Below, one piece after another: positions 15,068 through 32,147 of a stretch of 61,203 bases of DNA (position 1 is the stretch's first letter; every line of letters begins with the position of its first letter). The DNA is from a virus (Duplodnaviria; Caudoviricetes). Both the position numbers and the translations under genes were made by a program. Below the pieces are notes generated by a model. It made no database searches, had not been told where the DNA came from, and was given only the letters and a program-made list of their open reading frames with translations. The stretch covers positions 1-61,203 of the IMG/VR virus record IMGVR_UViG_3300042564_004703. The stretch is one strand, 5' to 3'.

Positions 15068-15081
15068 GTTTTGTTTTTATA

Positions 15082-15118: not shown

Positions 15119-15159
15119 GGAATTTTTAATTAATTATAAGCGTCTGATTATCAACGAGT

Positions 15160-15921: not shown

Positions 15922-15959
15922 TTTCCTAACTTTATTTAATTATTATTTATTAATTTGAG

Positions 15960-16469: not shown

Positions 16470-16531
16470 AGTACAAATGTAGTGATTATTTTTTAATTAT
16501 GCAAATAAAATGTAATCTTTTTATAAATTAT

Positions 16532-16666
16532 TTTTAACGTTTCGTGGCTTTATGAAGTTGCTGATTAGCAATCACTTAACCTTTGATTAATAATTATTTT
16601 TTACAAGTACACACTTGCCTTTTGTTTATTTACCACAGCAGTAATTTTATAAAACCACCGTTGTAT
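16532..16666 (-). repeat. Solo attC-like site F
   Basis: TTTTAAC-GTTTCGTGGCTTTATGAAGTTGCTG...CAGTAATTTTATAAAACCACC-GTTGTAT; same architecture as sites A-E. Confidence 0.75.
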
Positions 16667-16710
16667 TATTTCTTCTGCAAATATACAACATTAATTTATA
16701 TTGTGCAAAT

Positions 16711-17607
16711 TTATTTTGGATTATTTTTTAATTGGTCTAGTATCATTGAAGCATTACATAAAACAGCAGATAAATGGTCTTTATAAGTTTCTTCATCTTC
16801 TTCTATTGGCTGTATCATCTTTTTTACGTGGCGAAATAAAGCCCATTCTAAAGATTTTACATCGATAGGTTTTTTCATATTACCTTTCGGGTACTTATGC
16901 TTATTAGCTGTAAATCGTTCTGCCATTAAATCAAGTATTCCTAAATTAATTTCAGAGTAATCCACTTTACCGTTTGTTTCTTTTACTCCTTCTGGTCTTA
17001 TGCTAAAAGAGTTAGGTCTATCAAATTTTCCTGTTAATGTATCTACCCAATCTGTTAGTAATAATGAAAAATCTAATGGTTCGTATGGTGGTAGTTCTTC
17101 TTTATGTATTTCACTGTCTTTTGGGAATACTAAATTTTCTTCAGTTTTATTTTCTTTTGCGGAATTTTTATTAAATTCTTCGATTATTTCATTTATTTTT
17201 TCTCTCTGTTCAGGATTTGTTTCAAGGGTAATTGTTGTAGTTGTATATTCAGGAAAATTTTTTGTTTTTGTTTCTTTTTCCGCCGAATTTGTCTGCTCCA
17301 AAACTTCATCTAAAAAATGTGGAGAAACTTTTGCTTGTGGTGGTTTATTTATACCTTCCAAATCTCCTACTATTTTTAAGTTTTCTTCTTGCTCTATAGC
17401 TTCATCTAAATACGTCATAGTTTTTCCTGCTTTATGTCTTGTACTTAATCCTGCTGTTTTGTTTTTTTCGCCGTCAAAATAATTAGAAAACGGTTGTTTA
17501 CTAACATCCCAACCAGATACAGTAGTAACCCAATCACCAGCTATGTTAAAAAACTCATCTCTTGTTACTTCTTTACCACCTACTATGTATCTAAAGTTTT
17601 CTTGCAT
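16711..17607 (-). CDS. DUF5664 / dATP-dGTP diphosphohydrolase-domain protein with long N-terminal extension
   Basis: C-terminal GVKETNGKVDYS...KY...ALFRH...DHLSAVLCNA motif. Confidence 0.7.
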   Translation of the reverse strand: MQENFRYIVGGKEVTRDEFFNIAGDWVTTVSGWDVSKQPFSNYFDGEKNKTAGLSTRHKAGKTMTYLDEAIEQEENLKIVGDLEGINKPPQAKVSPHFLDEVLEQTNSAEKETKTKNFPEYTTTTITLETNPEQREKINEIIEEFNKNSAKENKTEENLVFPKDSEIHKEELPPYEPLDFSLLLTDWVDTLTGKFDRPNSFSIRPEGVKETNGKVDYSEINLGILDLMAERFTANKHKYPKGNMKKPIDVKSLEWALFRHVKKMIQPIEEDEETYKDHLSAVLCNASMILDQLKNNPK

Positions 17608-19276: not shown

Positions 19277-19927
19277 TTATTTTCCATAAATATAATCTAA
19301 AATTTCTCCAACTAAACCACTTCTATGATTTTCCTTTAGTTTTATCCATTTAATACCTTCTATATTTTTTGATAATTCTATTGCAAAATCTAATCCTGTA
19401 TAAGTTTCATTAGTGTCCCTCTGAGATGAATCCCCGTTAATTACTATTTTTCCAGTTGTTCCTAGTCTTGTTAATATAGCCTCCATTTCCCCTTTTGTTA
19501 AATTTTGAGCCTCTTCAACAATTAAAATATCATCAATAGTTTTACCTCTAATAAACTGTATAGGTAGCGCTTGTATTTTTCCATTTTTAACAAGCTCGTC
19601 TATTTTTAATTTATCCGTACACTTATATAAATTTTCTACAAGGGCTTCCATATAAGGATTGAATTTTTCTTTCAAATCTCCTGGTAAAAATCCTAAACTT
19701 TTTCCTACTTCAATAGCACTTCTAGCAACTAATACTTTTTCACATTGTTTTGTGTTTAGGAAATCTAATGCTGTAATTGCTCCAACTAAACTTTTTCCAG
19801 ACCCAGCTCTTCCAGTTACAATTACAATTTGATTATTTAAAATTAAAGCTTTAGCTTCTTTTTGTTCTTCATTAAGTTGTACATTATACTTAATTTCACT
19901 CTTTCTAACTCTGTTTGGTTCTTTCAT
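19277..19927 (-). CDS. phoH: PhoH-family ATPase
   Basis: GRAGSGKS Walker A, LGFLPGDLKEK, FIRGKT, EEAQN, LTRLG, GDSSQ, HRS; likely start MKEPNR. Confidence 0.92.
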   Translation of the reverse strand: MKEPNRVRKSEIKYNVQLNEEQKEAKALILNNQIVIVTGRAGSGKSLVGAITALDFLNTKQCEKVLVARSAIEVGKSLGFLPGDLKEKFNPYMEALVENLYKCTDKLKIDELVKNGKIQALPIQFIRGKTIDDILIVEEAQNLTKGEMEAILTRLGTTGKIVINGDSSQRDTNETYTGLDFAIELSKNIEGIKWIKLKENHRSGLVGEILDYIYGK

Positions 19928-19929
19928 AT

Positions 19930-20340
19930 TTATTTTAGTAATTGTTTTTGATAAACTCGGCAATAAACCCATCTGTTCAAACTATTCTCATCTGTAAGGC
20001 AGTTGTTGCAGATTATGGCTTGTGTTTCTTTTAGTGTTAATTCTGATTTACTGTATGCAAATTCAAGGATTGTTTTTTTAATCTTTTTTCCGCCCTTAAT
20101 CAAAGCTTTAACCTCCTTGCTTGAACTTTCGTAATTTCGCCAAGCGGATTCTTTTGTTACAGCTTTTTTCCCGCGCCCACGAGTAGAAGTAAGATTCTTT
20201 TTTCCGTAATAGTAAAAAGGAGTTCCAATTATTTCTATGAGGTATGTGAAGCCTATAGCTAGAGGAGGTACAGTAAAATCTTTACTACCTTTATATTCCC
20301 ATTGTGCTTTTTCTGCTGTTGTTTTTTTAACTGCCATCAA
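19930..20340 (-). CDS. GIY-YIG-like nuclease
   Basis: GFTYLI...YYGKK...WRNYESSS pattern. Confidence 0.6.
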   Translation of the reverse strand: MMAVKKTTAEKAQWEYKGSKDFTVPPLAIGFTYLIEIIGTPFYYYGKKNLTSTRGRGKKAVTKESAWRNYESSSKEVKALIKGGKKIKKTILEFAYSKSELTLKETQAIICNNCLTDENSLNRWVYCRVYQKQLLK

Positions 20341-20494
20341 ACATTTTATTTAGTTCTTCTTCTGTTTCGTATGTATAATCTTTATTTTTCCACCTTTCAA
20401 ATGCACAATCTTTTACCCAACAATCACATATTAAACATTCTCCGTTGTGGTCTGGTTTACATGGTGTTTCTTTTTTATTTATTTTTGGCGGCAT
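20327..20494 (-). CDS. 55-aa Cys-rich protein (below ORF-track cutoff)
   Basis: Manual translation MPPKINKKETPCKPDHNGECLICDCWVKDCAF...; fills the gap between neighbours. Confidence 0.6.
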   Translation of the reverse strand: MPPKINKKETPCKPDHNGECLICDCWVKDCAFERWKNKDYTYETEEELNKMFDGS

Positions 20495-20780
20495 CTAAAT
20501 ATTGTTTAAAAGTTTCTTTCAGTTCAATCATTGGTTTACCAAGATTTTTATTTTCCAAGAATAACGATGAATATAAATCATATAAATCTTCTTTTATTTC
20601 TTTTTGTACCTCTAAAAGATTTTGACCCCAAGCATAAACAGGAAAGTCTCTTACTGTTAAAATATATTCTCCGTGCTCTTTTATTATATCTACTTTTATT
20701 GGTTTTTCAAGTTTTATTTCTTTAAAACTTCTTAATTCCCAATATGTTTCTGTTACTGTCTTTTTAGTTTTTGGCGGCAT
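20475..20780 (-). CDS. Hypothetical protein
   Basis: 101 aa; YAWGQNLLEV loosely resembles a HicB-type fold (weak). Confidence 0.65.
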   Translation of the reverse strand: MPPKTKKTVTETYWELRSFKEIKLEKPIKVDIIKEHGEYILTVRDFPVYAWGQNLLEVQKEIKEDLYDLYSSLFLENKNLGKPMIELKETFKQYLDAAKNK

Positions 20781-21216
20781 ATCTTTTCTGTATTAATCTG
20801 TTGTGTCTTTTGGCTTGTTTATTACTATCTTCCGCAAAATCGTTTAGCATCTTTAACATTACTTCCTTACTTCTATCTTCATTGTTTTCTACGGCGTTTT
20901 TCCAATAATTCGTGAAATAAAAATGACAGATAAATGTTATTTCATTTCTTAACCACTTAAACATTGGGATTTGACTTATTAAGTATAGTAAAACCCACGG
21001 CGCGCCAAAAAGAAATAAAACAGAAAAAGTCACAAACTTCTTAATCCCTTTATCATCATTAAAAGTATCAAACAAATAATTACCAGCAATAAAACTGTTT
21101 ATTATCAAGTATATGTATATTATGTGTGTTGTCATATTTTTATTTATTATTTTTTCGCGCCAAAAAAAGTTTAAAACGGAAATATCTAAAACAGAAATTA
21201 TCCTCACTCTCAACAC
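20764..21216 (-). CDS. Membrane protein (likely start MTTHII)
   Basis: Two TM segments. Confidence 0.6.
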   Translation of the reverse strand: MLRVRIISVLDISVLNFFWREKIINKNMTTHIIYIYLIINSFIAGNYLFDTFNDDKGIKKFVTFSVLFLFGAPWVLLYLISQIPMFKWLRNEITFICHFYFTNYWKNAVENNEDRSKEVMLKMLNDFAEDSNKQAKRHNRLIQKRYAAKN

Positions 21217-21312
21217 AATGGTTAAGACACATTTTTAAAAACCAAATTTTTAGCTTGTTCATTTTTTAAGTTATAATTCTGGCAAAAATGTTTAGTTTCT
21301 GCCAGATGTTAA

Positions 21313-21756
21313 TTATTTATTTTGTCTGTCTCTGCATAATGTAATATAACCTTGTAAGTCTTCTCTTAAATCTGCTACGTTTACAAAACTTTCTTTGTGA
21401 AATGTTCTTTGGTCTAAAAACTCTTTATATTGTTTTGTGGCGGCGGCATATTTATCGGCATTTGAAATTGTTGGTGGCTTATCATACATTGGTTTTTCGT
21501 TTTCTCCAAATTCGTATTCATCTTTAACCATAGCAACCGCAATTCTCATCTTAATCGCAGTGGCTCCTTTATCGCTGCGCATTTCAGCTGCGTGCATCAT
21601 TTTAGTGTGCCAAGGTCTTAAATCTGCTTTTAAATCTAAAAATCTTTGTTGATATTCTAACAAAGTATCTTTATTTGCATCCCCGACAGAAGTAAAGTTT
21701 TTAAAAGACTGTCTTGTATTTTCGTATTCTTCAATTATTTCTTCTAACGGTCTCAT
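21313..21756 (-). CDS. Helical protein, possible UvsY-like recombination mediator
   Basis: Directly downstream of recA, all-helical, ADKYAAATKQY. Confidence 0.4.
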   Translation of the reverse strand: MRPLEEIIEEYENTRQSFKNFTSVGDANKDTLLEYQQRFLDLKADLRPWHTKMMHAAEMRSDKGATAIKMRIAVAMVKDEYEFGENEKPMYDKPPTISNADKYAAATKQYKEFLDQRTFHKESFVNVADLREDLQGYITLCRDRQNK

Positions 21757-21757
21757 A

Positions 21758-22744
21758 TTATAACTGCTGTTTTAAAAATTCAAAATCTTCTGGGTTTGCT
21801 TTTAAGTATTCTGCAAATTTATCTGTTCCTTGTACTTTCTTTTCTTCGCCGAATCTGTCAGGAAATGTAATCCAACCTGCTCCGCCTACTTTTGCAACTT
21901 CTGTTTCACAAAAAATTTGTGCGCACTCATCTGCTTCTTTAAAACCGCCATCATAATAAAAATTTAAAGTAATTACTTCTTTTTTATCAAAAGCTCCTGC
22001 TTTACTTTTACGGATTCTAATATCTAATTTGTGACCTACGACATTTTTATTTTCATCTCTAATTAAATCTTTTTTAGTAAAATCTAAATGAGTAAAAGGC
22101 ATATATTTGTTAAATTGTCCTCCAGGTAAAACTTTGCTATCACCGTGCATTACTCCAGGGTTTTCTCTCCACTGATTTAATATAATTAAAGCTGTTCCTC
22201 TTCTAGCACAATTTGCATTAATGATTGGTAATCTTGTGCCCAGTTTCTTTGCTTCAACACCTATAGAATACTCCTCAGCAGATTTTGCTTCCACGGCAAC
22301 AGAATAAAAAGCTTTAATAGAATCTACAATAATTCCACAAATATCTTCACTTTGAGAAAAAGCTTCTGCTGTATCTAACATGTTTTCAAGAACAGAGTCT
22401 TTATAAACAATCAGTCTGTTTTTATCTAATTCAAATCTTTCTAAATGGTTGTCTGTTATTGTTTGCTCACCATCAAGCATAACAACTGTTTTATTTGGGT
22501 ATTTTGTTTGAAGTTCTCTTGCCATAATTAAAGCAATACTACTTTTTCCACTTCCCTCCCAGCCAGTTAACAATGTCATAGCTCCTAATGGAACTACTTT
22601 ATTGTCCATGTAATAATCTAAATAAGCACTTCCAGAAGAACTGAAATCTAGATTTAGTGTCTCAATTTCTGATACTTTTTTTACTTGGTCTTGTTCTGCT
22701 TTTCCTTTGTTTAATTTTTTAAGTGTTTCTTCTAATGTGGGCAT
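21758..22744 (-). CDS. recA: RecA/UvsX-like recombinase
   Basis: GWEGSGKS Walker A, DGEQ, IIVDSI Walker B, LNQWR, PGG. Confidence 0.9.
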   Translation of the reverse strand: MPTLEETLKKLNKGKAEQDQVKKVSEIETLNLDFSSSGSAYLDYYMDNKVVPLGAMTLLTGWEGSGKSSIALIMARELQTKYPNKTVVMLDGEQTITDNHLERFELDKNRLIVYKDSVLENMLDTAEAFSQSEDICGIIVDSIKAFYSVAVEAKSAEEYSIGVEAKKLGTRLPIINANCARRGTALIILNQWRENPGVMHGDSKVLPGGQFNKYMPFTHLDFTKKDLIRDENKNVVGHKLDIRIRKSKAGAFDKKEVITLNFYYDGGFKEADECAQIFCETEVAKVGGAGWITFPDRFGEEKKVQGTDKFAEYLKANPEDFEFLKQQL

Positions 22745-22755
22745 AATTTGTATAT

Positions 22756-23499
22756 TTAATCTGTTATTTCTACTTTATAGTTAATTAATGCTTGATAAAC
22801 TTCGGGTTTTATTTTATCTTTCCACTTATCAGCTTTTTCTTTTACATAATCTTCTTTTGCTGTTTTATATGCTTCTGACGCTTCTTTTGCTGTTTTATAA
22901 GTACCTATTCTAAATGACTTATTATCTTTTGATAAATTAGCACAAAAATTTCCAACTATACTTAAAGTTACACCAATAGGTAGTTTTTTATTTCTATAAT
23001 CAACATATAAGAGACTATTTATTTCTTGCGGAACAAAACAACAAGTTTCAGGAGAATATATTTTATTACCTTTCACTAAAATATCCTTATCTAATTGCCA
23101 AGTATTATCCATCCAAGGTTTCCAGTTTTCTTCATACCATTTTGCAAAATTTTGAAAATTATACCATTCTTCACATACTGTCTTATCCGAATAAGATTTT
23201 TGCTTAACATGAAAATTTTCATCGTAACATCTCCATAAAACTAACTTCCACAATGAAAATGCTTTTTTATAAACACCTGTACTGTATTTTCCAAAACCAA
23301 TATAACCTTTATTATAAAAAGATTTATTGTTTTTATTTTTTACCTTCCCTTTTGTTAAGTTATGATATGTTATATTTTTAATTATAGTACTATCGTTTAG
23401 TTTTATAGTAATATTTTCAGAGTTAAAATACTCTATAATTTCTGCTTCAAACCCTTCATTAGTTGTAAACTTTTCACCTATTCTACTCAAATCTTTCAT
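22756..23499 (-). CDS. HNH-type homing endonuclease with C-terminal AP2-like region
   Basis: VCEEWYNFQNFAKW..WQLDKDIL..YSPETCCFVPQEIN motif. Confidence 0.8.
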   Translation of the reverse strand: MKDLSRIGEKFTTNEGFEAEIIEYFNSENITIKLNDSTIIKNITYHNLTKGKVKNKNNKSFYNKGYIGFGKYSTGVYKKAFSLWKLVLWRCYDENFHVKQKSYSDKTVCEEWYNFQNFAKWYEENWKPWMDNTWQLDKDILVKGNKIYSPETCCFVPQEINSLLYVDYRNKKLPIGVTLSIVGNFCANLSKDNKSFRIGTYKTAKEASEAYKTAKEDYVKEKADKWKDKIKPEVYQALINYKVEITD

Positions 23500-23869
23500 T
23501 ATGTTTATAATTAATTCTTTCTGATATTATTGGTATTAAATTTTTAAATACTTCTTGTGCTTTTGGATATATTTTCATTTGCTTTATTTTTTCTTGTGAT
23601 AAGTTGTCAAATTTTAAATGGCATTCATTATCACTGTACAAACCACAAAGATATAAAACATTTAAGTCTGAACACATTACAGATTTAAAATATTGCTTAG
23701 GAAGTACATGTGCCACCTCTGAAACATCACCTCTCAATTGCTCGCCACAGTTCTCACAGCACTTTTTCTCTTTTTTAATAATATCTACATGTTTCATAAA
23801 AAAATTTGGTAGACACTCTCTTTCGGATTTTCTTTTTTCTAATCCTTTTTTACTATATCGCCTAATCAT
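23483..23869 (-). CDS. Small Zn-binding HNH nuclease (NinG-like)
   Basis: CENC...AHVLPK...N..YLC...CH. Confidence 0.65.
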   Translation of the reverse strand: MIRRYSKKGLEKRKSERECLPNFFMKHVDIIKKEKKCCENCGEQLRGDVSEVAHVLPKQYFKSVMCSDLNVLYLCGLYSDNECHLKFDNLSQEKIKQMKIYPKAQEVFKNLIPIISERINYKHNERFE

Positions 23870-24146
23870 TTATGAAGTAAGCAGCATGATTGTACTGTTT
23901 ATAGTAATGGTCCAGATAATACACCTTATCGCCGTCGGTCAGGTAAGTTCTTAATTTTTTCAATTTTCTTGTTCTTTTTATAATGCCGTTTAAATGTAAA
24001 AATCTAAACTGCTCTGGTGACATGTATTCGTAGTTTGGATTTTCGCGTATATTTTTAACTTCGGCGATTTGCTCTTCCGTATATCCTATTTTAATTAAGA
24101 ATTCTCTATATTCTTCCCAAACAATTCTTTTATAATTATCTTCCAT
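23862..24146 (-). CDS. Hypothetical protein
   Basis: 94 aa; promoter-like sequence upstream. Confidence 0.65.
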   Translation of the reverse strand: MEDNYKRIVWEEYREFLIKIGYTEEQIAEVKNIRENPNYEYMSPEQFRFLHLNGIIKRTRKLKKLRTYLTDGDKVYYLDHYYKQYNHAAYFIND

Positions 24147-24209
24147 TTTTTAATTTTTTATTATTGCAATAATACGAAATTTTTTTGAATTATGCAAGTT
24201 TTTCGTGAA

Positions 24210-24590
24210 CTATTTTAAAATTTCTATTATTTGCTGTTTTAGTTTTTCTTGCGCCGAATTAAAGTTAAAATTGTCTCGCATCCAACTCAAATATTTCTTA
24301 TCTTCTATAAAGGCTTGTTGAACTGTTTTGTCTTTTAACTTACCAACAGGAATTATTTCGTCAAAAACTCTAGGTTCTTTTTCTAATATTCCTTTTTCCC
24401 TTGGTACGTATGCTTTTTTATTTCTTTTTATATAATCTATTAAAGCAGTTCTTAATTCTTCTTTATCCGTTTCTCCTGCCGCCCATTTCACTTCGTTATC
24501 TTCGTCTAAATAATAATGTGCATCTTTTACCCACCAATGACTACTTTTATCTTTAAACTGCTTTATAAGAATTTCTGAAGATTTTTTCAT
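24210..24590 (-). CDS. Protein with C-terminal DUF3820/ExoX-C-like motif
   Basis: IPVGKLKDKTV...DKKYLSWMRDN. Confidence 0.6.
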   Translation of the reverse strand: MKKSSEILIKQFKDKSSHWWVKDAHYYLDEDNEVKWAAGETDKEELRTALIDYIKRNKKAYVPREKGILEKEPRVFDEIIPVGKLKDKTVQQAFIEDKKYLSWMRDNFNFNSAQEKLKQQIIEILK

Positions 24591-24739
24591 AAATTTCGAG
24601 AACTTTCATAGTTAAAGTATTGATTTTATTGATGTTTTTTATTAGTTGTACATATATAATAGTTAGCAAACAGCTTTGTTGGAATGGAAAAAAGAAACTA
24701 CCAAGAAAGTTTATTGTTATCGTTATTAAAAAAGTAACA

Positions 24740-24979
24740 ATGGAAGAAGTAATAAAACTAAAATTTAAAAGATGTCCACCGTTTGAAAAGGAAAAGCACT
24801 TAAATTTTACTTCACAACAAGCAAGATTTTTCAAAAAAATTGAAAATTATTGTGAGTCATCAACCGAAAAACAAATAGAAGTGTTAATAGATATTATTAA
24901 ACCTTATTATACAAGACAATCAAAAGAGTCTTTAGGCTTTCCTTTAAAGTATAATTTACTTAATGTCTCTACGAATTAA
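24740..24979 (+). CDS. Cassette cA sense gene (79 aa from MEEVIK)
   Basis: In-frame ATG 78 bp after the GTT core; converges on partner with a 24-bp overlap. Confidence 0.6.
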   Translation: MEEVIKLKFKRCPPFEKEKHLNFTSQQARFFKKIENYCESSTEKQIEVLIDIIKPYYTRQSKESLGFPLKYNLLNVSTN

Positions 24980-25354
24980 TGTGTGTTCGTAGTCGTAAAG
25001 GTCTCGATGTGAATAGTTTCTGATATTACCATTTTCATCTTTACATTTGTATAATACCTCATTTGAAATTTCATTGTCAATAAAAATATCAATTATTTCG
25101 TACCATTGTGGTTTTACTTTACGTTGATTAGAATGAAAATACACTTCTTGACCAACCCTAAACCAAGCTCCTGGAAATACCTCATTTGTTAGAAAAAGAT
25201 TATTTTCCATATCTCTGTAAGTTACTCCATCTTGGTGCGTAAAATCATAAACAGGTATATTATGCGAGGTTTTGTATGTGTTAACTTTAGTTATTGTAAC
25301 TAAACTATTATCTAAACCCCAATAAACTTTTTGAAACAAATTGAATCTTGGCAT
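24956..25354 (-). CDS. Cassette cA inward gene with tandem small beta-barrel-like repeats
   Basis: Two similar halves (FNLFQKVY.. and FRVGQEVY..); own -7 box TAAGTTTG. Confidence 0.7.
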   Translation of the reverse strand: MPRFNLFQKVYWGLDNSLVTITKVNTYKTSHNIPVYDFTHQDGVTYRDMENNLFLTNEVFPGAWFRVGQEVYFHSNQRKVKPQWYEIIDIFIDNEISNEVLYKCKDENGNIRNYSHRDLYDYEHTLIRRDIK

Positions 25355-25421
25355 GTGTAAATTTTTAAAATTTTTACCAAACTTACGAAAATATTTATAA
25401 CTTTGAAAATAAAAGCCGATT

Positions 25422-25554
25422 TGCTAACAGCGGTTTTGTGCAAGTGGCAGGTTAGTGAGTGTTTGAAAGCACTCGGCACGAATAAAAAACAGTAATAATC
25501 GGCAAAGTTCAGGCTCAATCGTGCCACCTGACACAAAGCCACAAAACGTTATAT
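25422..25554 (+). repeat. attC-like site H
   Basis: TGCTAAC-AGCGGTTTTGTGCAAGTGGCA...TGCCACCTGACACAAAGCCACAAAAC-GTTATAT. Confidence 0.85.
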
Positions 25555-25626
25555 GAAATGCCTTGCTTACCGTTTCCAATTGAAGTTCCGTTAATGAAAA
25601 ACAAAAAGAAAAAAGCCACCGCACTT

Positions 25627-26304
25627 TTAAAATAAGGTGTTTTCAATATATTTATCTTTAACCTTATAACTTGCATCATATCTTTGGTTATCTCCTTTTG
25701 GGTATGGTTCAATCTTAAATTTCAATTTCTTTAGCATATCATTTTTTTGTCGTTTATCTCCTATAAAATAAAAATATCTATGCTTCCTATCTCTTTCAGC
25801 AAAATACAAATCATCTCCAAATTTTTCTTTTAGCCATTTACCTCTGTCTTTTTGCCCTCTACTCATATCAAAAATTGTAGATGTATGCAAGTGTTCCATC
25901 CCTCTTACTTTATAATCACTAACTTTAGCTGACAATCCCGTATAAATCCAATTTGTAGCTTGATAAATATAACCGTTATGTCCTTTTGATGTATCGGCAT
26001 AACTAACAATCACATTGGGTTTTGGGATATGATTTAAACATTTTGATAAGAACCAACTTAATATATTTTTCTCTAATCCTTCATCAACACAAAGCCTATT
26101 TAATTCAATAACATTATAATCAGAATATACACTTCTAATTGCGTTACTTGCAGGAGTTCCAAAGCTACATATACCTTTGATTTCATTATCTAAAATCAAA
26201 CCAAATAAAAATGTAATTGGTGGCATACGTTTAGCATAGTGCTTGTTTAAAATCCACTCCTTACCTTTTTCTTTAGGTATTATTTCTACTTTATAATTTA
26301 GCAT
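25627..26304 (-). CDS. Mom-like GNAT DNA-modification enzyme (cassette cB cargo)
   Basis: KHY...SFG...ELNRLC...VSYAD...GH.GYIYQATNWIYTG...KHRY match the Mu Mom family. Confidence 0.8.
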   Translation of the reverse strand: MLNYKVEIIPKEKGKEWILNKHYAKRMPPITFLFGLILDNEIKGICSFGTPASNAIRSVYSDYNVIELNRLCVDEGLEKNILSWFLSKCLNHIPKPNVIVSYADTSKGHNGYIYQATNWIYTGLSAKVSDYKVRGMEHLHTSTIFDMSRGQKDRGKWLKEKFGDDLYFAERDRKHRYFYFIGDKRQKNDMLKKLKFKIEPYPKGDNQRYDASYKVKDKYIENTLF

Positions 26305-26480
26305 ATCTCTTGTATTCTTTCAGGAAATATTCTTATTATTTCTCCTTTTGAGTTATGCAATTCAACAAACAAAGTATCATTTTCATAATAATCATTTGTA
26401 TAAATCATTACTTCTTCTATCTGTGATATTGTGGTTTCATCTAAACCATCTGTATCAATTACTTTTACATTTTTTGCCAT
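26298..26480 (-). CDS. Small hypothetical protein (cassette cB cargo)
   Basis: 60 aa, overlaps the Mom-like start. Confidence 0.6.
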   Translation of the reverse strand: MAKNVKVIDTDGLDETTISQIEEVMIYTNDYYENDTLFVELHNSKGEIIRIFPERIQEIC

Positions 26481-26549
26481 CGCTTTTTTTCTTTTTGTTT
26501 TTCTGTTTAGTGTTTCAATTGGGGTTTATCGTAAATAAGTCGGCACTTC

Positions 26550-26632
26550 ATATAACACGGGTTTGGCAAAATGGCTTTCCGACACACAAGCCAACGCTAA
26601 AAGCCACTTCGCCAAGCCCGATAACGTTAGTG
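26550..26632 (+). repeat. attC-like site I (short)
   Basis: ATATAAC-ACGGGTTTGGCAAAATGGCTTT...AAAGCCACTTCGCCAAGCCCGATAAC-GTTAGTG. Confidence 0.85.
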
Positions 26633-26638
26633 GCAATT

Positions 26639-26938
26639 TTACTCAACACTCCGAAAGACATCAGCATTGAAATATTTAGCCAAGTTTTCAACCTCTTGCT
26701 TAAATTCGTTTTCATCACGCATTGTCTTTGATAACATTACTTCAAACACTCCATCTACTTTTCTTCCAAAGCAATAAGCAAGAGCATCTTTGTCATAGGT
26801 ATCAACTCCCATTACATATTCAGGCTGTTTGATAGTAGCTTTCTCCAACAATGCTTTGTCGAATAAAAAACTGCCACTAACAGCACCTAAACAAGATGGC
26901 TGGCTTTGTGATTCTAATGAAGTTTTTTCTGTACTCAT
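26639..26938 (-). CDS. Hypothetical protein whose N-terminus is read through an attC remnant (cassette cC)
   Basis: SQPSCLGAVSGS is the antisense translation of CTGCCACTAACAGCACCTAAACAAGATGGCTGGCT. Confidence 0.65.
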   Translation of the reverse strand: MSTEKTSLESQSQPSCLGAVSGSFLFDKALLEKATIKQPEYVMGVDTYDKDALAYCFGRKVDGVFEVMLSKTMRDENEFKQEVENLAKYFNADVFRSVE

Positions 26939-26953
26939 AATTTGTTTATTTAT

Positions 26954-27202
26954 TTATATTTCGTTTTTTAATATATCGGACAAAGTTTTAAAAATAAAAA
27001 CTAAACCTTCTCTTTCTATTGAGCCTTTTATTTTAAAAGATGTTTCAATGTTTTCAATTGAGTCTGACTTTATATACACTTCTGTTATTGTTGAATTGCC
27101 TTCGTATTCCCCAAGCCTTACTCCAAAAACTATTTCTTCTGGTGAATTTATAAATCTCTCTATAGTTTTTAACTTTTCCATTTTTAATATTTTAGACTGC
27201 AA
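26954..27202 (-). CDS. Hypothetical protein (likely start MEKLKT)
   Basis: ORF after promoter TTGCA...TATATTTG. Confidence 0.6.
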   Translation of the reverse strand: MQSKILKMEKLKTIERFINSPEEIVFGVRLGEYEGNSTITEVYIKSDSIENIETSFKIKGSIEREGLVFIFKTLSDILKNEI

Positions 27203-27217
27203 ATATACAAAAAATAA

Positions 27218-28405
27218 TTATATTTTGCAAGTTTTATTCAACATTTCTATTTCTTTTTTATAATCTTTATAATATTTTTCAATTGTTTTTTTTGAAATAT
27301 TATGATTTTTATAAATACTTTGCTGTGTTATTTTTCCTAATTTAACAAAATCCCAACAATCTAAAATATTTTGTATCTTCTCTCGTGACGCTTTTTCTTT
27401 AGATTCGGAAGACACTTCTCTACAAACTGCTAATTTTTCGTTTTTACTTAATCCGCAGTATTTACCGAATAAAGCTTTTCTTTTTATAACCCCAGTAGGT
27501 CTTAAAGTACCTTCTTTTTTGTATTTTAAAACAGAGCTAATAATCCTTTGTAATTGTGGCTCGTCAACAGGGTTTGTAAAATTATTAAAGTTTACTGCTG
27601 TCATAATAGCGTGCAATCTATCTTCGTATATATTTGGGTTTAACCAAACTAAATTTGTACAATATGCTAATAATATATTATTTCTATTTTTTGATACTTT
27701 TTTGTAAAGTAGTTTTGCTTGTATAAAATCAAAGCCTTCTATATTCTTTATAACAGACTCTTCATTTTCTAAATAGTCTGCTCGGTTATCAAATCTTACA
27801 TTGTTTCCATTTTCCCCCCACTGTGTGCTATATGCTTTCTTTTTTTTATTTATTTCACAAAGGGGGGAAAGATTAATACTTTTAAATATTTTAGATTTAG
27901 TATTAAGGTAAAGATTCTCATCATAAGAAAGTACATTGAATTGTGTAGTTTTTTTAGCTCCTAAATCAACATAATTAGATATTTCTAATTTAGAACATAC
28001 GTACGCATAGGTTTCGTTAAAATTATCTTCTGTTAATCCGTCTACACGTATAACAATAGAATAACCTTTACCACCAAATGATTTATAGTATGCAAAAATA
28101 TCTGATTTATTTACATTTTCTATTTTAAAATCTGGTGCATCAATATCAATATATAGTAACCCAGTAGGTGCAACTATGTTTGACTTATTTTTATAACCGT
28201 TAAAATTAAAGTTGTAAACAACACAAGGAAGTTGTTCTGTTTTTGTTGTATCATAATCTAATTCTCCATTTCTAGCTTTTAATATTAAATCTGAATACTC
28301 TCCGTTTTTAATATAGTCAAACCAGTCATAAACAGAAATTTGTTTTATAACGTTACAATTCTTTGTGCAATAAAAGTAATCTAATATATAATTATCTTTT
28401 TCCAT
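27218..28405 (-). CDS. BT4734-like/VirE-N primase-polymerase-domain protein
   Basis: LPCV...PTGLLYIDID...SFGGKG...D...LSYDENLY typical of this AEP-related family. Confidence 0.75.
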   Translation of the reverse strand: MEKDNYILDYFYCTKNCNVIKQISVYDWFDYIKNGEYSDLILKARNGELDYDTTKTEQLPCVVYNFNFNGYKNKSNIVAPTGLLYIDIDAPDFKIENVNKSDIFAYYKSFGGKGYSIVIRVDGLTEDNFNETYAYVCSKLEISNYVDLGAKKTTQFNVLSYDENLYLNTKSKIFKSINLSPLCEINKKKKAYSTQWGENGNNVRFDNRADYLENEESVIKNIEGFDFIQAKLLYKKVSKNRNNILLAYCTNLVWLNPNIYEDRLHAIMTAVNFNNFTNPVDEPQLQRIISSVLKYKKEGTLRPTGVIKRKALFGKYCGLSKNEKLAVCREVSSESKEKASREKIQNILDCWDFVKLGKITQQSIYKNHNISKKTIEKYYKDYKKEIEMLNKTCKI

Positions 28406-28891
28406 TTTATAAAATGCGAAACCCCCAGTAACAAAAAATGAACCTAATTGTTAGAGCGGGTTCATCATTGCTAAAGAGGGTTTACTTCTTTATATTATTT
28501 TTAGTTTGTTTAGTATGCTCTAACCTATACTATAAACTCCGATATGTAAAATTAAATCTAACTCTGTAAGTTAGAAGCGTATCTTTAGGTAATACGTTTG
28601 TGAAAATTAATTTCAACCAAGTCCTTTACTATTTTAGTAATGACTAATTTCCGCTGATAAAAAATAAAGCCGTTAAAAAGATACTCGGATAAACATATCA
28701 ACAGCTTTATAGTAAAGAAGTTCCGATAATTATTTTTAAAAGTAACGACACAATAGAATACCTCTCTGTCCAAACGTCCAAAACGTTTTACTTATTAATT
28801 TTTAAACTTCTGTTCCGCCACCTAAAGCAGAAAAAGCAATCATATCATTTTTCATACCGCAAATATATAACATTATTTTCATGTATGCAAG

Positions 28892-28933
28892 CAAAAGTAG
28901 TAAAAAGTTTTAAAATAAGCAAAATCCTTATAA
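28892..28933 (-). promoter_or_regulatory. TTATAAGGA-type promoter (leftward), tandem with a second promoter at about 28860-28890
   Basis: Minus strand TTATAAGGATTTTG...TACTTTTG, 34-bp spacing. Confidence 0.6.
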
Positions 28934-28943
28934 AATTACTTTA

Positions 28944-28976
28944 AAAAAGCCTCTCCGAAGAAAGGCTCAATTTTTC
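28944..28976. terminator. Hairpin terminator
   Basis: AAAAAAGCCT-CTCCGAAGAA-AGGCT; T-run on the minus strand. Confidence 0.55.
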
Positions 28977-28983
28977 TAAACAA

Positions 28984-29256
28984 TCAACTATTAAAATCTA
29001 CAAACTCTCCATTATCATAAAGACTTGGCTTATAATCAAACAAGTCTTTGAAAAAAACTTTTATAACCTCAGCATAAACAATTTCGTTTACATTTTTAGT
29101 TTCATATTTTCTAAACATGGAATAAGTTAGGTGTCTGATAAACTCCTGATTTTCTTCTCTATATTTATAAGAGACATCTGACTGAGAAATATAATCTCGC
29201 CAAATAAAATTGTAAAAATCTTCGTATTCTAGCATGTTATGGTTTTTAAAATGCAA
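28984..29256 (-). CDS. Hypothetical protein (likely start MLEYEDF)
   Basis: First leftward gene from the divergent promoter region. Confidence 0.65.
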   Translation of the reverse strand: MHFKNHNMLEYEDFYNFIWRDYISQSDVSYKYREENQEFIRHLTYSMFRKYETKNVNEIVYAEVIKVFFKDLFDYKPSLYDNGEFVDFNS

Positions 29257-29360
29257 ACATACAACAAATTTTTGAATTGTGCAAATAAATGATAAAAATA
29301 CTTATTTTGTTAAATGAATGTTAAAGTATTTGCATATAAGAAAATAATTACTTATCTTTG
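29252..29360. promoter_or_regulatory. Divergent promoter pair at the strand switch
   Basis: Minus TTGCA...TATGTTTG; plus TTGCA...TATCTTTG (29353-29360). Confidence 0.7.
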
Positions 29361-29377
29361 CCCTTTGATTAAAGTAT

Positions 29378-29770
29378 ATGCACGCAAGAGTTAAAGATAA
29401 AAACATATTTTTTGATATAATAAAACCAAAAAATCAAATAGATTTCATAGAATCTATCTTGAAGGTATATTCTGCATTAAACTTTGACGAGAAAAGTAAT
29501 TTACCAAAAGCGGAGAGAACAATCTTAGCTTATTATGTACTTCACGGTTTGACAGAGGAAACTCTAAAAAATGTTCTTATAGATTTTCCAAAGTATGCAA
29601 AAGGAGAATATTTACACCAAATGAATAAGAATTTAAGAGATAAGGGTTATTTAGTAAGAGAAGTGAACAACTTTAAAAAATTTCACTTAAATGGAGATTT
29701 GCAACATATAAGAGAAAAATTTATAGAAGATAAATGTAAACATTATTTAATTAAGTTTGAAACAGATTAG
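29378..29770 (+). CDS. Hypothetical protein, possible winged-helix DNA binder
   Basis: 130 aa; NLRDKGYLV helix-wing-like segment. Confidence 0.6.
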   Translation: MHARVKDKNIFFDIIKPKNQIDFIESILKVYSALNFDEKSNLPKAERTILAYYVLHGLTEETLKNVLIDFPKYAKGEYLHQMNKNLRDKGYLVREVNNFKKFHLNGDLQHIREKFIEDKCKHYLIKFETD

Positions 29771-30188
29771 TTTTATAGATGATATTTTTGAAGAAATAGG
29801 GGCTGACAAAGAACAGCAAATGGCAATAAAGTTTTGGTTAGATTATGTCGCAAAAGAAACAAAAGAAAATGAAGTATTTGCCATAGACATTCCAAAGATA
29901 GGAGTTTTACATAGAAACAGAACTTTAACTCAAAACTCTAAAAAGTATCTAAACAGAGACAGCGAAGAGTACGCAGAGATAATGAAGATGCTTTTAGAGA
30001 TGCAATATTTCAAAGAACAGAAAAATGAAAAAACCCCACATTGTAAAACACCATACACATACATAACAAGTAGTTATTTAAAGAAAAAATATGAATTACC
30101 ACAAATAAATAATTCAGATAAACAAGTAAAAGAAGTATATTCAGCAATAGAAAAAGAACAACAAAAACAGTATGAGCGAGGCTTTTAA
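29757..30188 (+). CDS. Hypothetical protein, possible HU/IHF-like fold
   Basis: IDIPKIGVL resembles the HU beta strand motif. Confidence 0.45.
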   Translation: MKQISFIDDIFEEIGADKEQQMAIKFWLDYVAKETKENEVFAIDIPKIGVLHRNRTLTQNSKKYLNRDSEEYAEIMKMLLEMQYFKEQKNEKTPHCKTPYTYITSSYLKKKYELPQINNSDKQVKEVYSAIEKEQQKQYERGF

Positions 30189-31761
30189 ACACCAAGTATT
30201 AAGTAGAGAAGAAACACAAGAAAAAATTAAACAAGGAATTGATTTAGTAGTAAATCCTGTAAAGGTAACTTTAGGAAGAGGAGGAATGAATGTATTGTTA
30301 ATTCGAGATAACTTACTTCCTGTAATTACAAAGGACGGAGTTTCAGTAGCTAGAAACATACAACATGAAGACCCATTTGTGAACGCAGGAGCTATGTTAG
30401 TTAAGGAAGTATCTGCAAGAACAGAAGAATTATGTGGAGACGGTAGTTCAACTTCTAGTGTATTAGCTCAAGCAATATTTAATGAGGTTCAAAAGCACAA
30501 AAATATAAATCCAATTCAACTAAAAAAAGATTTAGAAAAAGTAACAGAAGAAGTTGTTGGACACCTAAAAAAATTAAGTCAAAAACCTAAGTCAAAAGTA
30601 AGACTTAAAGAAATTGCAGATATTTCCGCTAATGGAGATAAAGAAGTAGCTGATTTAGTTTATAAAGCTATTCAAAAAGTAGGAGAGACAGGAGTAATTA
30701 AAGTTGAAGAATCAGAAGATGTAGATTCAAGAGTAGAAGTTGTAGATGGTTATCAATTAGACACTCCATTCTATAATGCAGGTTTTATCACAAATCACGA
30801 TAAAATGACAGCAGAATTCTCCAATATGAATGTACTTTTATATGAAGGATTTTTAGAAACCTTTGACGATTTAGTCCCAACAATAAACGCAATAACAGAT
30901 TTTACAGACCCTGAAAACCCAAGAGTAGGTGGTTTATTAATTTTGTGCGACACAATCGACCCAAACACAGAAAACCAAATACTAAACTTTAAATCATTAG
31001 GACATAACTTTATGATTTTAAAAACTCCTTTATTTGGAATTCAAAGAACAGAGCTTTACCAGGATATTGCAACTTTAATCGGAGCACAAGTCTACTGCAA
31101 AGAAAAAGGAAAACCACTTACAGAAGTTAAATTAGAAGGATTAGGAAAAGTTAAGAAAGTTGTTTCTGACGTAAATAAGACACTATTAATAGGCACAGAA
31201 GGAAATACATCAGAAAGAATAAATACCATCAAAGAACAGCTTAAAAACTACCAAGGCGCGTCAAAAGAAAAACAAACAATAAAAGACAGACTTGGAAAAT
31301 TAGAAGGTGGTGTTGCAATGATTTATGTTGGTGGTGGCTCAAAATCCGACAAAAGAGAAAAAACAGATAGAGTAGATGACGCACTAAAAGCAGTTAAGTC
31401 TTGTATTGAAGAAGGATATGTAGCAGGAGCAGGAGTAACTTATTTAACTATTTCTAATATGTTGCAAGGAACTAATGAAGCCACACAAGTAATGAAAGAG
31501 GTATTAAAAGCACCTTTCTTACAAGTATATGAAAACGCAGGGATAAACGGAGAAGATTATTTAGATTATGTTTTAACTTCAGAATACGGCTCAGGAATTG
31601 ATATTGATAATGGAGAAAAAGTCAATCTTTTTGACATTGGAGTAATTGACCCAACAAAAGTAAGCAGATTAGCTTTAGAAAACGCAGTATCTGTTGTAAG
31701 TTTATTTACTTCTTTAGGAGCTTCAAGTTTTAATTCAGAACCTTTAATGCAAATGAGCTAA
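30172..31761 (+). CDS. groEL: Chaperonin GroEL
   Basis: VTLG..G.NV, ITKDGVSVA, GDGSST, ISANGD, GGVA, EEGYVAGAG, IDPTKV. Confidence 0.95.
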   Translation: MSEAFKHQVLSREETQEKIKQGIDLVVNPVKVTLGRGGMNVLLIRDNLLPVITKDGVSVARNIQHEDPFVNAGAMLVKEVSARTEELCGDGSSTSSVLAQAIFNEVQKHKNINPIQLKKDLEKVTEEVVGHLKKLSQKPKSKVRLKEIADISANGDKEVADLVYKAIQKVGETGVIKVEESEDVDSRVEVVDGYQLDTPFYNAGFITNHDKMTAEFSNMNVLLYEGFLETFDDLVPTINAITDFTDPENPRVGGLLILCDTIDPNTENQILNFKSLGHNFMILKTPLFGIQRTELYQDIATLIGAQVYCKEKGKPLTEVKLEGLGKVKKVVSDVNKTLLIGTEGNTSERINTIKEQLKNYQGASKEKQTIKDRLGKLEGGVAMIYVGGGSKSDKREKTDRVDDALKAVKSCIEEGYVAGAGVTYLTISNMLQGTNEATQVMKEVLKAPFLQVYENAGINGEDYLDYVLTSEYGSGIDIDNGEKVNLFDIGVIDPTKVSRLALENAVSVVSLFTSLGASSFNSEPLMQMS

Positions 31762-32147
31762 TGAATATAAACAATATTAAAGTAGTTGACGCAGAAATAA
31801 TAAAAGTAAAAAAACCTCATTGGGTTTGGTTAGCTATAAAAAGTAGATTTTTAAAAGGAAGAGAACCTTGGGTAAAAGAGAGAATAGAAAAATGTGCTAA
31901 TTGTGTTTACAACTCAAAGAACTTTAAAGAGAAGAAAACACTGAAACAAAAAACTCTAAAATTCTTCTCAGATTTACTATCCTTAGTAACTTTATCATTT
32001 CATAAGGATTTAGGACAATGTTTAAGTCCCACATGTGGTTGTAGTGTGCACGAAAAATCAAAAATAAAGGAGGAAGATTGTCCTGAAAATTATTGGAGAA
32101 GTATTTATGTACCAAACTCAAGTCAAACTAAAAACGGAATAAAATGA
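31761..32147 (+). CDS. Cys-rich Zn-finger protein
   Basis: R..CxxC...C...CGC...K.....CP...W. Confidence 0.65.
   Translation: MNINNIKVVDAEIIKVKKPHWVWLAIKSRFLKGREPWVKERIEKCANCVYNSKNFKEKKTLKQKTLKFFSDLLSLVTLSFHKDLGQCLSPTCGCSVHEKSKIKEEDCPENYWRSIYVPNSSQTKNGIK

Follow-up and report, generated by a model that had tools for sequence, protein, structure and literature searches.

How could small genes parted by integron-like hairpins have come to lie in, and perhaps to move through, a phage that shows no recombinase of its own? The locus that raises this question lies in a 61,203-nt contig from lake water (the window, by which we mean this whole stretch of DNA), whose source phage is crAss-like, as indicated by a Pfam CrAss_Ring_2 match (E 1.7e-31). 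Array 2, as we term the locus (Table 1), is an integrase-less cassette cluster, so called because the 61-kb contig encodes no such recombinase: the tyrosine recombinase family PF00589 had 0 matches on the contig, and neither recombinase nor transposase families of Pfam were matched among its 91 ORFs of at least 70 aa (one of 60 aa). Since the contig is ~44% complete by the record's estimate, a recombinase could be encoded elsewhere in the phage. With the sites accepted as attC, array 2 places a truncated site and two full ones inside 1.6 kb and has no integron integrase nearby, the arrangement by which CALINs are recognized (at least two neighboring attC sites without such an integrase). Scans of the window for tRNAs and Rfam families gave no matches, Rfam having no family for such sites, and megablast of positions 20000-32000 against the phage collection found no match. 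We put at roughly three in four the probability that array 2 is a three-cassette integron-like cluster without its own integrase, built on a Bacteroidota-specific site family and mobilized in trans as proposed below.

Classical attC sites are imperfect hairpins of ~55-141 nt with inverse core sites that end in ...AAC and start with GTT...; their stems are conserved in structure rather than in sequence, and the 7-mer consensus of integron core sites is RYYYAAC/GTTRRRY. Sites H and I of array 2 belong to a Bacteroidota family of attC-type sites. They were recognized by a covariance model, R1, built from 61 bacterial-genome sites, none of them from the window, and comprising 18 pairs, 12 of which show compensatory changes. 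At E <= 6.5e-6, R1 detected eight sites within the window: H and I on the + strand, and a further six at 10464-16676 on the - strand; all non-site matches in the window scored at most 15.7 bits. The sequence-only reading had it that H and I are the sole full sites of array 2, both internal, and that the array is oriented opposite to a first one; the scan and the strands of its sites (+ in array 2, - in array 1) bear this out. A generic scan of the window for AAC...GTT hairpins found no extra short sites near array 2, its other matches lying inside long genes. Folded as a single + strand, H reaches -22.4 kcal/mol (z -2.3) and I -16.8 kcal/mol (z -2.8), and the GC content of H is 0.43 vs. 0.30 for the window. 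AAC and AACGTT are invariant in 9/9 aligned sites, and the integron consensus fits loosely (e.g., TGCTAAC and GTTATAT). Across the family the stems covary, the loops vary and the sequence at the stem base is unusually conserved. Over 97 nt, site I shares 89% identity with a site of the Flavobacterium genome L237; blastn of hairpin H against the phage collection returned no match.

Table 1. Features of array 2 and its left neighbor (window coordinates; R1, covariance model of the site family).
Feature	Position	Strand	Description
ORF X	24210-24590	-	126 aa; in variable segment, absent from relative L001
Array 2	24651-26964	+ (site polarity)	Head junction, three cargo modules parted by sites H and I, truncated third attC
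Array-head (attI-like) junction	24651-24664	+	CATATATAATA|GTT; crossover point between G24662 and T24663
Cassette A cargo	24662-25428	+	Bounded by GTTAGCAAACAGCTTT (24662-24677) and AAAGCCGATTTGCTAAC (25412-25428); convergent ORFs A1 and A2
ORF A1	24740-24979	+	79 aa, sense
ORF A2	24956-25354	-	132 aa, antisense
Site H	25412-25561	+	attC-type, full; AAC of R'' 25426-25428, GTT of R' 25548-25550 (AAC-to-GTT span 25426-25550); R1 93.7 bits, E 1.4e-21
Cassette B cargo	25548-26556	+	Ends GTTATATGAAATGCC (starting 25548) and GGCACTTCATATAAC (ending 26556); 75-nt terminal inverted repeats, 25548-25623 and 26475-26556
Mom-like DNA-modification gene	25627-26304	-	225 aa, antisense to sites; Pfam PF25680 Mom, E 1.4e-38; PHROG 1384, E 2.9e-56
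ORF B2	26298-26480	-	60 aa; overlaps Mom start by 7 nt
Site I	26540-26639	+	attC-type, full, short loop; AAC 26554-26556, GTT 26626-26628 (AAC-to-GTT span 26554-26628); R1 50.3 bits, E 1.9e-10
Cassette C cargo	26626-26881	+	Bounded by GTTAGTGGCAATTTT (starting 26626) and AAAAACTGCCACTAAC (ending 26881)
ORF C	26639-26938	-	99 aa, antisense; reads across AAC border
Truncated attC of cassette C	26875-26964	+	R'', 5' arm and part of loop present; 3' arm and R' missing

In integron cassettes, complementarity between the 5' end of a cassette and the R'' of its own site is the footprint of the G|TT crossover. Such complementarity is found in cassettes A, B and C, as well as in array 1 and in the bacterial array L153, and the three pairs of complementary ends described for array 2 from the letters alone could be read directly from the sequence. 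The ends of cassette B form an inverted repeat that contains a perfect 19-mer and scores 29, vs. a mean of 11.1 (sd 1.9, maximum 19) in 500 shuffles. Local alignment scores for the ends of A and C (14 and 14 vs. shuffle means of 10.5 and 8.4) are weak taken by themselves; anchored end to end, these ends align over 9-10 perfect bases plus a conserved extension, and the pairing carries weight because both arms are anchored exactly at the hairpin borders. The ends of cassette A (17 and 15 nt) are also identical, in inverted orientation, to those of an array-1 cassette at 12410-13060, the interiors being different.

The distribution of these sites points to Bacteroidota. A two-part pattern derived from site H was searched in 185,579 species genomes and in IMG/VR, and occurred in 112 stretches of the species genomes (estimated chance expectation < 1) and 65 stretches of IMG/VR. 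By record title, 75 of the 112 are Flavobacterium and three lack a Bacteroidota label. A bare 15-mer from H matched at least 116 IMG/VR stretches, which is about chance level, and only the contigs with two matches (L007 and L071) were used. Among all loci compared, adjacent sites with almost no spacer occurred in one case (L377), and an empty form, GTTA|TAAC, appears in contigs. In all loci with a homolog of the L153 recombinase (9/9), the sites of the array point one way and the homolog stands at its upstream end by site polarity, being co-directional in eight and divergent in L173. It is an Xer-like tyrosine recombinase whose best solved relatives are XerA proteins; its alignment with IntI4 (PDB 2a3v) is confined to chain residues 8-185 and 243-307, and the region of the integron-integrase insert spans 15 residues in the Flavobacterium enzyme vs. 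~58 in IntI4. With TIGR02249, whose cut-off is 265 bits, the array-linked Flavobacterium recombinase reaches 201 bits, and no protein in any of five array-bearing Flavobacterium genomes attains that cut-off. Judged by these alignments, the partner recombinase is a predicted Xer-like enzyme without the IntI-specific insert and not an integron integrase. We found no demonstration in the literature of this enzyme recombining these sites.

Since the hairpins are located between genes, they might be read as transcription signals, i.e., terminator or promoter modules comparable to PeSLs, with shuffling by ordinary homologous recombination between hairpins. A TAnnTTTG box, which we take to be a Bacteroidetes-type -7 box, lies beside the end of cassette A, and the start codon of cassette C is supplied by its attC, both in keeping with such a role. 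Nevertheless, we consider this explanation very improbable: the breakpoints fall on the AAC/GTT triplets, outside the conserved hairpin, terminators would not be expected to have complementary ends specific to each cassette, covariation is seen in the stems and variation in the loops, and the identical site family is arrayed behind a tyrosine recombinase in bacteria.

Mom is the only recognizable cargo of array 2 (PHROG 1384 is annotated as "Mom-like DNA modification protein"); the other cargo ORFs had no match in Pfam or PHROGs. This applies to both ORFs of cassette A, and A2 had no relatives among viral contigs and a best score of 0.89 in the protein atlas, which is below lead level. ORF B2, likewise matching no family in Pfam or PHROGs, accompanies Mom in L248, L249 and L250. 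ORF C resembles terminase-fragment clusters in the protein atlas (0.96), which we treat as a lead only. Its codons 1-19 fall within the attC remnant, and the leader so encoded, M.TE....QPSCL.AV, recurs in L238, L403 and L404, where it comes from full attC sites before other cargo, while in L399 and L400 cargo C has other leaders, from other attCs. ORF X, to the left of the array, is not counted as a cassette because no sites bound it; its C-terminus weakly resembles that of a helicase-like ORF of a close relative, L001 (27% over 70 aa, E 5e-4), and its Pfam match to ExoX-like_C (23.7 bits) is below the cut-off. As had been stated from the sequence, four of the five cargo ORFs of array 2 lie on the - strand, against the site polarity. 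The proposal attached to that observation, selection for cargo co-oriented with the phage operon, is not supported, because antisense cargo is general in phage-borne arrays of this family, including array 1, where it opposes the flanking phage genes. The longest ORF is antisense to the sites in 3/3 cassettes of array 2 and 3/4 of array 1, and antisense cargo also predominates on other viral contigs with these sites.

The two edges of the array are of different kinds. R1 detected no site at the left edge, which had been regarded as the half-site of an eroded attC; this gives way to another identity, since the edge reads CATATATAATA|GTTAGC, i.e., CATATAnnnnA|GTT, and matches the array-head junction of bacterial arrays, [CG]ATATAnnnnA|GTT, which sits 120-190 nt behind the recombinase gene. 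Motif and spacing are common to the bacterial loci L153, L180, L155, L170 and L120, near variants of the motif occur in L192, L190, L122, L231 and L401, and in L231 and the phage the motif has no recombinase adjacent. The motif [CG]ATATAnnnnAGTT occurs twice on both strands of the window, vs. 1.2 times expected from shuffles, one occurrence being exactly at the left edge. Because the edge shares this motif with bacterial array heads, it looks like a dedicated head site rather than a random GTT. At the right edge, R1 gives just 14.1 bits (E 0.37; 26865-27006), for which reason we call the outer site partial. Mutational decay, the earlier explanation of this edge, does not fit, as ~75 nt of attC survive nearly identical to the full site of L404 and are cut in the loop; in L404, L403 and L238, the first ~75-87 nt of each full site nearly match the truncated one. 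Identity with the L001 backbone begins at 26947 and overlaps the attC alignment in an AT-rich stretch, 26943-26964. On these alignments, the right edge is a true attC that breaks off within its loop and continues into phage backbone at AT-rich microhomology.

A segment taken over as a single block from a chromosomal array of the host, through one event of illegitimate recombination, might end in just this way, with a head junction typical of bacterial arrays on the left and a cut at microhomology on the right, and would persist as a passive fossil on a contig without recombinase, site-specific recombination never having acted on phage DNA. The rest of the evidence makes such an origin quite improbable. 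Only ~14 nt to the left of the junction resemble bacterial head regions, the phage also holds a second array and a solo site, and a DNA search of the genus Flavobacterium (401 genomes) matched hairpins only, with no match covering a cargo gene. Moreover, the cargo is antisense, as on other viral contigs, whereas 44 segments of integrase-linked bacterial arrays comprised 37 sense, four antisense and three without an ORF, so that an ordinary chromosomal array is an unlikely donor.

As anticipated, the locus varies among relatives: in L001 (primase 98% identical), the sole close relative found, a 112-aa ORF and the 464-aa helicase-like ORF replace window positions 24204-26946, and no hairpins are present there. 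No primase relatives were found among metagenome contigs. Independent capture at a second locus, as the sequence-only reading proposed, is plausible. Array 1 is on the - strand, the six - strand sites at 10464-16676 comprising this array and a solo site. Here, window positions 12280-13060 are identical to positions 1127-1907 of L231, a Flavobacterium genome bin, at 781/781 nt. The shared segment is one cargo plus its downstream attC, its flanks differ, its breakpoints are at GTT crossover positions, and it occupies the first place in the L231 array. Two other suggestions about array 1 fared less well. That it is closed by complementary outer flanks is weakened by a fifth site (13909-14054) and a 65-nt direct repeat after two sites, and a co-chaperonin assignment made by eye for the ORF at 14045-14275 was dropped, as Pfam gave no match.

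Exchange among older relatives of array 2 follows other borders. The viral contigs L248 and L249 are 93.1% identical over 940 nt to window positions 25620-26558; the homology ends at AAC, with a different short hairpin beyond. Cargo C has relatives in L399 (93%; 26625-26892), L400 (87%; 26624-26885) and L401 (84%; 26626-26882), where the hairpins differ on both sides. Because homology with these relatives ends at the GTT and AAC borders, the attC did not travel with the cargo in cassettes B and C, a pattern that the classical one-point exchange at G|TT would not predict. Metagenome depth in run X2 was 38-47 at site I vs. 8-10 on the backbone. A joint 26629->26878 was present in 2/4 runs, and joints 25576->26532 and 25629->26484 in 1/4 runs; these skip cargo only, and the contigs, taken at 90% likeness, may be other genomes. 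No joint equals attC x attC excision of cassette B (25548->26627), an absence that is evidence neither way, as are the parts of the stretch without cover in runs X4-X6.

Such observations could mean that the mobile units are cargo modules with terminal inverted repeats (GTTA...TAAC), swapped between hairpins that form a separate scaffold, with exchange at both borders, for example through a recombinase that lacks the IntI strand-choice domain and acts on both strands, or through short hairpin-base homology used by phage recombination. The sharing of cargo alone for B and C, the joints that omit cargo alone, the recurrence of the 5' part and leader of the cassette C attC before other cargo, and the 75-nt repeats of cassette B are all in line with this, and the phage encodes a RecA-like protein (21758-22744; Pfam). 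We nonetheless hold it to be unlikely. The one recent transfer seen, the 781-nt array-1 segment, is cargo with its attC, broken at G|TT on either side in the manner of integrons; of the two repeat arms of B, L248 has a single one; no direct repeat or target duplication is visible in the sequence beside the inverted ends; and transposases are absent among the 91 ORFs.

Under the integron-like reading that we prefer, a host recombinase would act in trans during infection, joining one folded site to another, or to the head junction, at G|TT, and cassettes would thereby move between host arrays and the phage. Cassette C, the last in the array, would be fixed in place, since a site without 3' arm and R' should leave it unable to depart. 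The phage would gain accessory genes, and a Mom-like product would protect phage DNA from restriction by modifying it. The cargo would be "reversed", as is typical of phage-borne arrays of this family, with the start codon and leader of cassette C presumably read from inside an attC. Because the same folding sites fill chromosomal cassette arrays of Flavobacterium, small genes, including one for an anti-restriction enzyme, seem to pass between phage and host. A broader scenario is possible, and we advance it tentatively: flavobacterial phages may keep their own pool of reversed cassettes, in which the attC core provides promoter or start codon and cargo and cores are re-assorted at AAC and GTT, perhaps because a recombinase without the strand-choice domain of IntI works on both strands. 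Counter-defense genes such as Mom would be traded by means of the host enzyme, with the phage supplying a head site, and the host would capture phage cassettes at its own array head, as hinted by the identical cassette in first place in the L231 array.

If the proposed reading is true, integron-style capture extends beyond IntI-bearing Proteobacteria and plasmids, and a simpler, Xer-like system of Bacteroidota draws on a single cassette pool together with virulent phages, crAss-like phages among them. This would be a route by which flavobacteria abundant in fresh water and the phages that infect them could rapidly swap small defense and counter-defense genes. A recombinase without the domain thought to impose strand choice would also constitute a natural experiment on how attC recombination evolved from Xer recombination.

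Classical integrons combine an IntI with an additional domain, an attI head site and mostly promoterless sense cargo. The present system resembles them in whole-cassette exchange with G|TT breakpoints, as seen for one array-1 cassette. It differs in a host enzyme without the IntI-specific insert, in sites with an asymmetric inner loop (3-4 nt vs. 7 nt) and strongly conserved bases (AACAGYGGTTT...AAGCCACRAAACGTT), in phage-array cargo that is mostly antisense and can start within the attC, and in the uncoupling of attC and cargo between older relatives of array 2. PeSL cassettes of T4-type phages have repeated stem-loops flanking small accessory genes in a hyperplastic region, and are thought to shuffle by homologous recombination; unlike these, array 2 has site-specific breakpoints, and its sites match recombinase-linked bacterial arrays. 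Transposons and MITEs have terminal inverted repeats, a target-site duplication and, in autonomous elements, a transposase; array 2 shares the inverted ends but lacks both flanking direct repeats and a transposase among the 91 ORFs.

Integron integrases can insert cassettes at secondary genomic sites (bioRxiv 10.1101/2022.09.11.507474). The first cassette of array 2 is similarly joined to non-attC DNA at G|TT (24662), although here the non-attC side bears the bacterial array-head motif. Phage attC clusters (CALINs), including those of virulent phages, and Xer-linked arrays (rAID-1) are both already published, as far as the available portions of these sources go (Ross et al., 2019; Qi et al., 2023). 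In rAID-1, a 5' XerD-family tyrosine recombinase precedes an array of two or more genes, all co-directional with it, between which lie repetitive sequences "reminiscent of integrons"; the defining threshold, set in gut Bacteroidales, is 44% or higher identity with a recombinase of B. fragilis, and the genes carried serve interbacterial immunity (Ross et al., 2019; bioRxiv 10.1101/471110). The Flavobacterium arrays share this architecture, whereas the phage array has no recombinase and 4/5 of its ORFs oppose the site polarity; the term attC has 0 occurrences in the available rAID-1 text. The phage CALINs, which include five methyltransferases among their cassettes (Qi et al., 2023; PMC9892861), are similar to array 2 in their DNA-modification cargo. 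With integron cassettes and CALINs, array 2 further shares imperfect hairpins bounded by ...AAC and GTT... and oriented all one way, cassette 5' ends complementary to their own R'', and the lack of an integrase beside the array. Its phage is crAss-like, a type for which the available portion of Qi et al. (2023) yielded no case.

Array 2 (24651-26964, + strand; cassettes A, B and C) is real and more than chance would produce. The six cassette-end motifs listed by the sequence-only reading were all found at its coordinates when the sequence was read directly, and the two full attC-type hairpin sites, H and I, are GC-rich islands (0.43-0.48) within AT-rich DNA that both fold as single strands. 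Cassette-end pairing is anchored at the hairpin borders, with 9-10 perfect bases and a conserved extension in A and C, and with a 75-nt inverted repeat in B (score 29 vs. 11.1 +/- 1.9 for shuffles, maximum 19). Elsewhere in the window, H-like copies point the opposite way. Built on 61 bacterial sites and no phage sequence, a covariance model recovered eight window sites at E <= 6.5e-6 (see table), all other matches reaching at most 15.7 bits. Because this bacterial-only model finds H and I on the + strand and the other sites, including those of the first array (array 1), on the - strand, the earlier claim of a second, oppositely oriented array holds.

Sites found by the covariance model, and ORFs of the window outside the arrays with their similarities
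Feature	Coordinates	Strand	Remarks
Site H	25412-25561	+	93.7 bits
Site I	26540-26639	+	50.3 bits
Array 1 site	10464-10613	-	
Array 1 site	11316-11459	-	
Array 1 site	12273-12426	-	
Array 1 site	13047-13198	-	
Array 1 site	13909-14054	-	
Solo site	16525-16676	-	80 bits; between two - strand genes
ORF	16711-17607	-	Neighbor of the next ORF; dATP/dGTP diphosphohydrolase N-domain
ORF, 212 aa	17741-18379	-	Class II (His-type) tRNA-synthetase core matches, E 3e-20
PhoH-like gene	19277-19972	-	
SegE-type GIY-YIG ORF	19930-20340	-	E 7.4e-17; overlaps start of PhoH-like gene; possibly a homing endonuclease
ORF X	24210-24590	-	Absent from L001; C-terminus weakly like that of the L001 helicase-like ORF 9800-11194 (27% over 70 aa, E 5e-4)
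ORF, 496 aa	41710-43200	+	In structural-gene block; treble-clef zinc-finger-like matches (DUF723, DUF4379) are followed by the window's second Mom-family domain (residues 319-450, E 1.1e-7)

The sites show further features. Read on the - strand, array 1 has a direct repeat of ~65 nt after the GTT of two sites (13860-13921, 10400-10476), which forms the leader ahead of small membrane-like sense ORFs. The R'' (the core site ending in AAC) before site 13047-13198, ACACACAAC, is complementary to GTTGTGTGT after site 10464-10613, suggesting rearrangement within array 1. In the viral contig L248, the Mom gene pair is preceded by a short hairpin (2185-2262; ~60 nt) that is flanked by AAC and GTT and is missed by the long-site model; short sites of the family may thus be under-counted.

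The sequence-only reading took both outer edges of array 2 for eroded sites, and neither edge bears this out. Bacterial arrays start at [CG]ATATAnnnnA/GTT (slash, junction), 120-190 nt behind the recombinase stop codon, and the left edge of array 2 reads CATATATAATA/GTTAGC. The motif occurs only twice on the two window strands together vs. 1.2 expected, and because one occurrence sits exactly at the left edge, the supposed half-site appears to be an ordinary array head and no eroded attC. The only other occurrence (3633-3652, - strand, CATATAAAGCA/GTTGCTAAA), within ORF 3567-4196, is probably chance. At the right edge, 26875 to ~26942 is near-identical to the initial portion of full-length sites at three other loci (L404, L403, L238), and from 26947 on the sequence is identical to that of the backbone relative L001. 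Because the two alignments overlap in an AT-rich stretch (26943-26964), the last attC was cut within the loop, and microhomology marks its junction with the backbone. This site lacks the 3' arm and R' (the core site starting with GTT), and cassette C is therefore predicted not to be excisable through its own site.

In cassette B, a 60-aa ORF precedes and overlaps a Mom-like gene (Pfam E 1.4e-38; PHROG E 2.9e-56), a pair also seen in the viral contigs L248 and L249 and in L250. ORFs A1, A2 and C matched no family in Pfam or PHROGs; the protein atlas neighbors of ORF C (26639-26938, - strand) are clusters named terminase large-subunit fragments (0.96). The predicted start of ORF C lies within the attC remnant, and its reading frame crosses the AAC border. 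Its relatives in L399 and L400 have another start and leader, supplied by whichever attC sits there, and the attC of cassette C stands with its leader ahead of other cargo in L238, L403 and L404. In attC cores of this family (L238 1292-1561, L403, L404, L399, L400; window 26882-26938), the opposite strand encodes the start codon of reversed cargo along with a leader of 17-20 aa, and the leader type M.TE...QPSCL.AV recurs before unrelated cargo. Counting the longest ORF per inter-site segment relative to site polarity, integrase-linked bacterial arrays (8 loci, 44 segments) have 37 sense, 4 antisense and 3 without an ORF; the corresponding counts are 1, 6 and 4 in four viral contigs, 1, 4 and 1 in genome-collection loci of unknown context (L238, L243), 1, 3 and 0 in array 1, and 0, 3 and 0 in array 2. 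Selection for cargo co-oriented with the phage operon, as had been proposed, fails to explain this pattern because the antisense ORFs of array 1 run opposite to the flanking phage genes.

Array 2 also departs from the classical cassette model. Three sequences related to cargo C (93%, 87% and 84% identical) match it only between the GTT and AAC borders, with other hairpins on both sides; in L248 and L249, cargo B ends at AAC, lacks 25548-25619 and is followed by a different short hairpin. Among four lake metagenome runs, two showed a joint from 26629 to 26878 that skips cargo C (sides 30 and 63) and one showed two joints that skip the B genes (sides 29-30); the canonical excision joint of B was seen in none of the four. 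These joints may stem from other genomes because the contigs were matched at 90% likeness and hairpin I has several times the depth of the backbone. In the longer term, cargo would thus re-assort with attC cores at both borders. Top-strand recombination, or short-homology recombination at conserved hairpin bases, could be responsible.

Exchange with Flavobacterium is indicated in array 1, where one cargo and its site (12280-13060) are identical at 781/781 bases to L231 1127-1907, part of a Flavobacterium genome bin (83-kb contig). Neither flank is shared, the breakpoints fall at the GTT positions that integron-type exchange would use, and in L231 the common cassette is first in its array, adjoining a head-type junction. 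This identity points to a Flavobacterium host and to recent exchange. The array 2 cargo genes had no match in a DNA search of 401 Flavobacterium genomes, in which only the hairpins and the attC remnant matched. The window spans the whole record (61,203 bases, GC 30%, classed in IMG/VR as linear and ~44% complete) and bears crAss-like marks in Pfam, namely tail ring protein 2 (E 1.7e-31) and a BT4734-like primase domain. Other Pfam matches are a RecA-like gene, a SegE-type GIY-YIG nuclease and PhoH, and to the left of 29 kb the - strand carries most of the genes. On this ~44%-complete contig, PF00589 (tyrosine recombinase) had 0 matches, and Pfam recombinase families were absent from all 91 ORFs. 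A single close relative was found, L001, whose primase is 98% identical; it has other genes and no sites at the array 2 locus and also lacks array 1. In this comparison (n = 1) the content differs, and the outcome set to refute the sequence-only reading, identical content in all relatives, was not seen.

In bacteria, a two-part pattern from conserved site bases matched 112 stretches of a species-genome collection, where we estimate <1 by chance; Flavobacterium is named in 75/112 titles, and only 3 titles have no Bacteroidota label. When the 61 bacterial sites were aligned, 12 of the 18 pairs in the stem showed compensatory changes. In F. ardleyense (L153), ten sites, all pointing one way, lie behind a tyrosine recombinase gene, and each closes a cassette of a single gene, the cassette's 5' end being complementary to its own R''; a SieB-like protein and a Gp49/HTH pair are among the cargo. 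Homologs of this recombinase stand at the upstream end of a site array in 9/9 loci holding one. The enzyme is Xer-like, its best solved relatives being XerA proteins, and it aligns with IntI4 in two blocks; because 15 residues stand where IntI4 has about 58, the integron-specific insert is, by this alignment, absent. It scores 201 bits vs. the NCBIfam integron-integrase cut-off of 265, and 0/5 array-bearing Flavobacterium genomes encode a protein above that cut-off. Integron-like platforms on Flavobacterium chromosomes (L153, L180, L170, L155, L120, L192, L173, L190, L122) combine an Xer-like recombinase lacking the IntI insert with the head motif [CG]ATATAnnnnA/GTT, and the 12 kb covered contain up to 12 sites.

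Taken together, array 2 is best interpreted as a cluster of integron-like cassettes that lacks an integrase and belongs to a Bacteroidota family, with a putative head junction at the left, a truncated terminal site at the right and a Mom-like counter-restriction gene. We infer both the exchange mechanism and the enzyme responsible. By title or abstract, we found no paper on these sites in phages of the crAss-like group or of Flavobacterium, on antisense cassettes with attC-encoded starts, or on the head motif. Integrons are described as rare in Bacteroidetes in the IntegronFinder 2 paper (PMC9024848). Integrase-less attC clusters have been published in 17 phages, including a virulent Polaribacter phage with methyltransferase cargo (PMC9892861). 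The rAID-1 clusters of gut Bacteroidales have an XerD-like recombinase at the 5' end, co-directional arrays and intergenic repeats that are integron-like (bioRxiv 10.1101/471110); they are the closest published description of the recombinase-headed arrays of Flavobacterium, whose platforms may belong to the same family.
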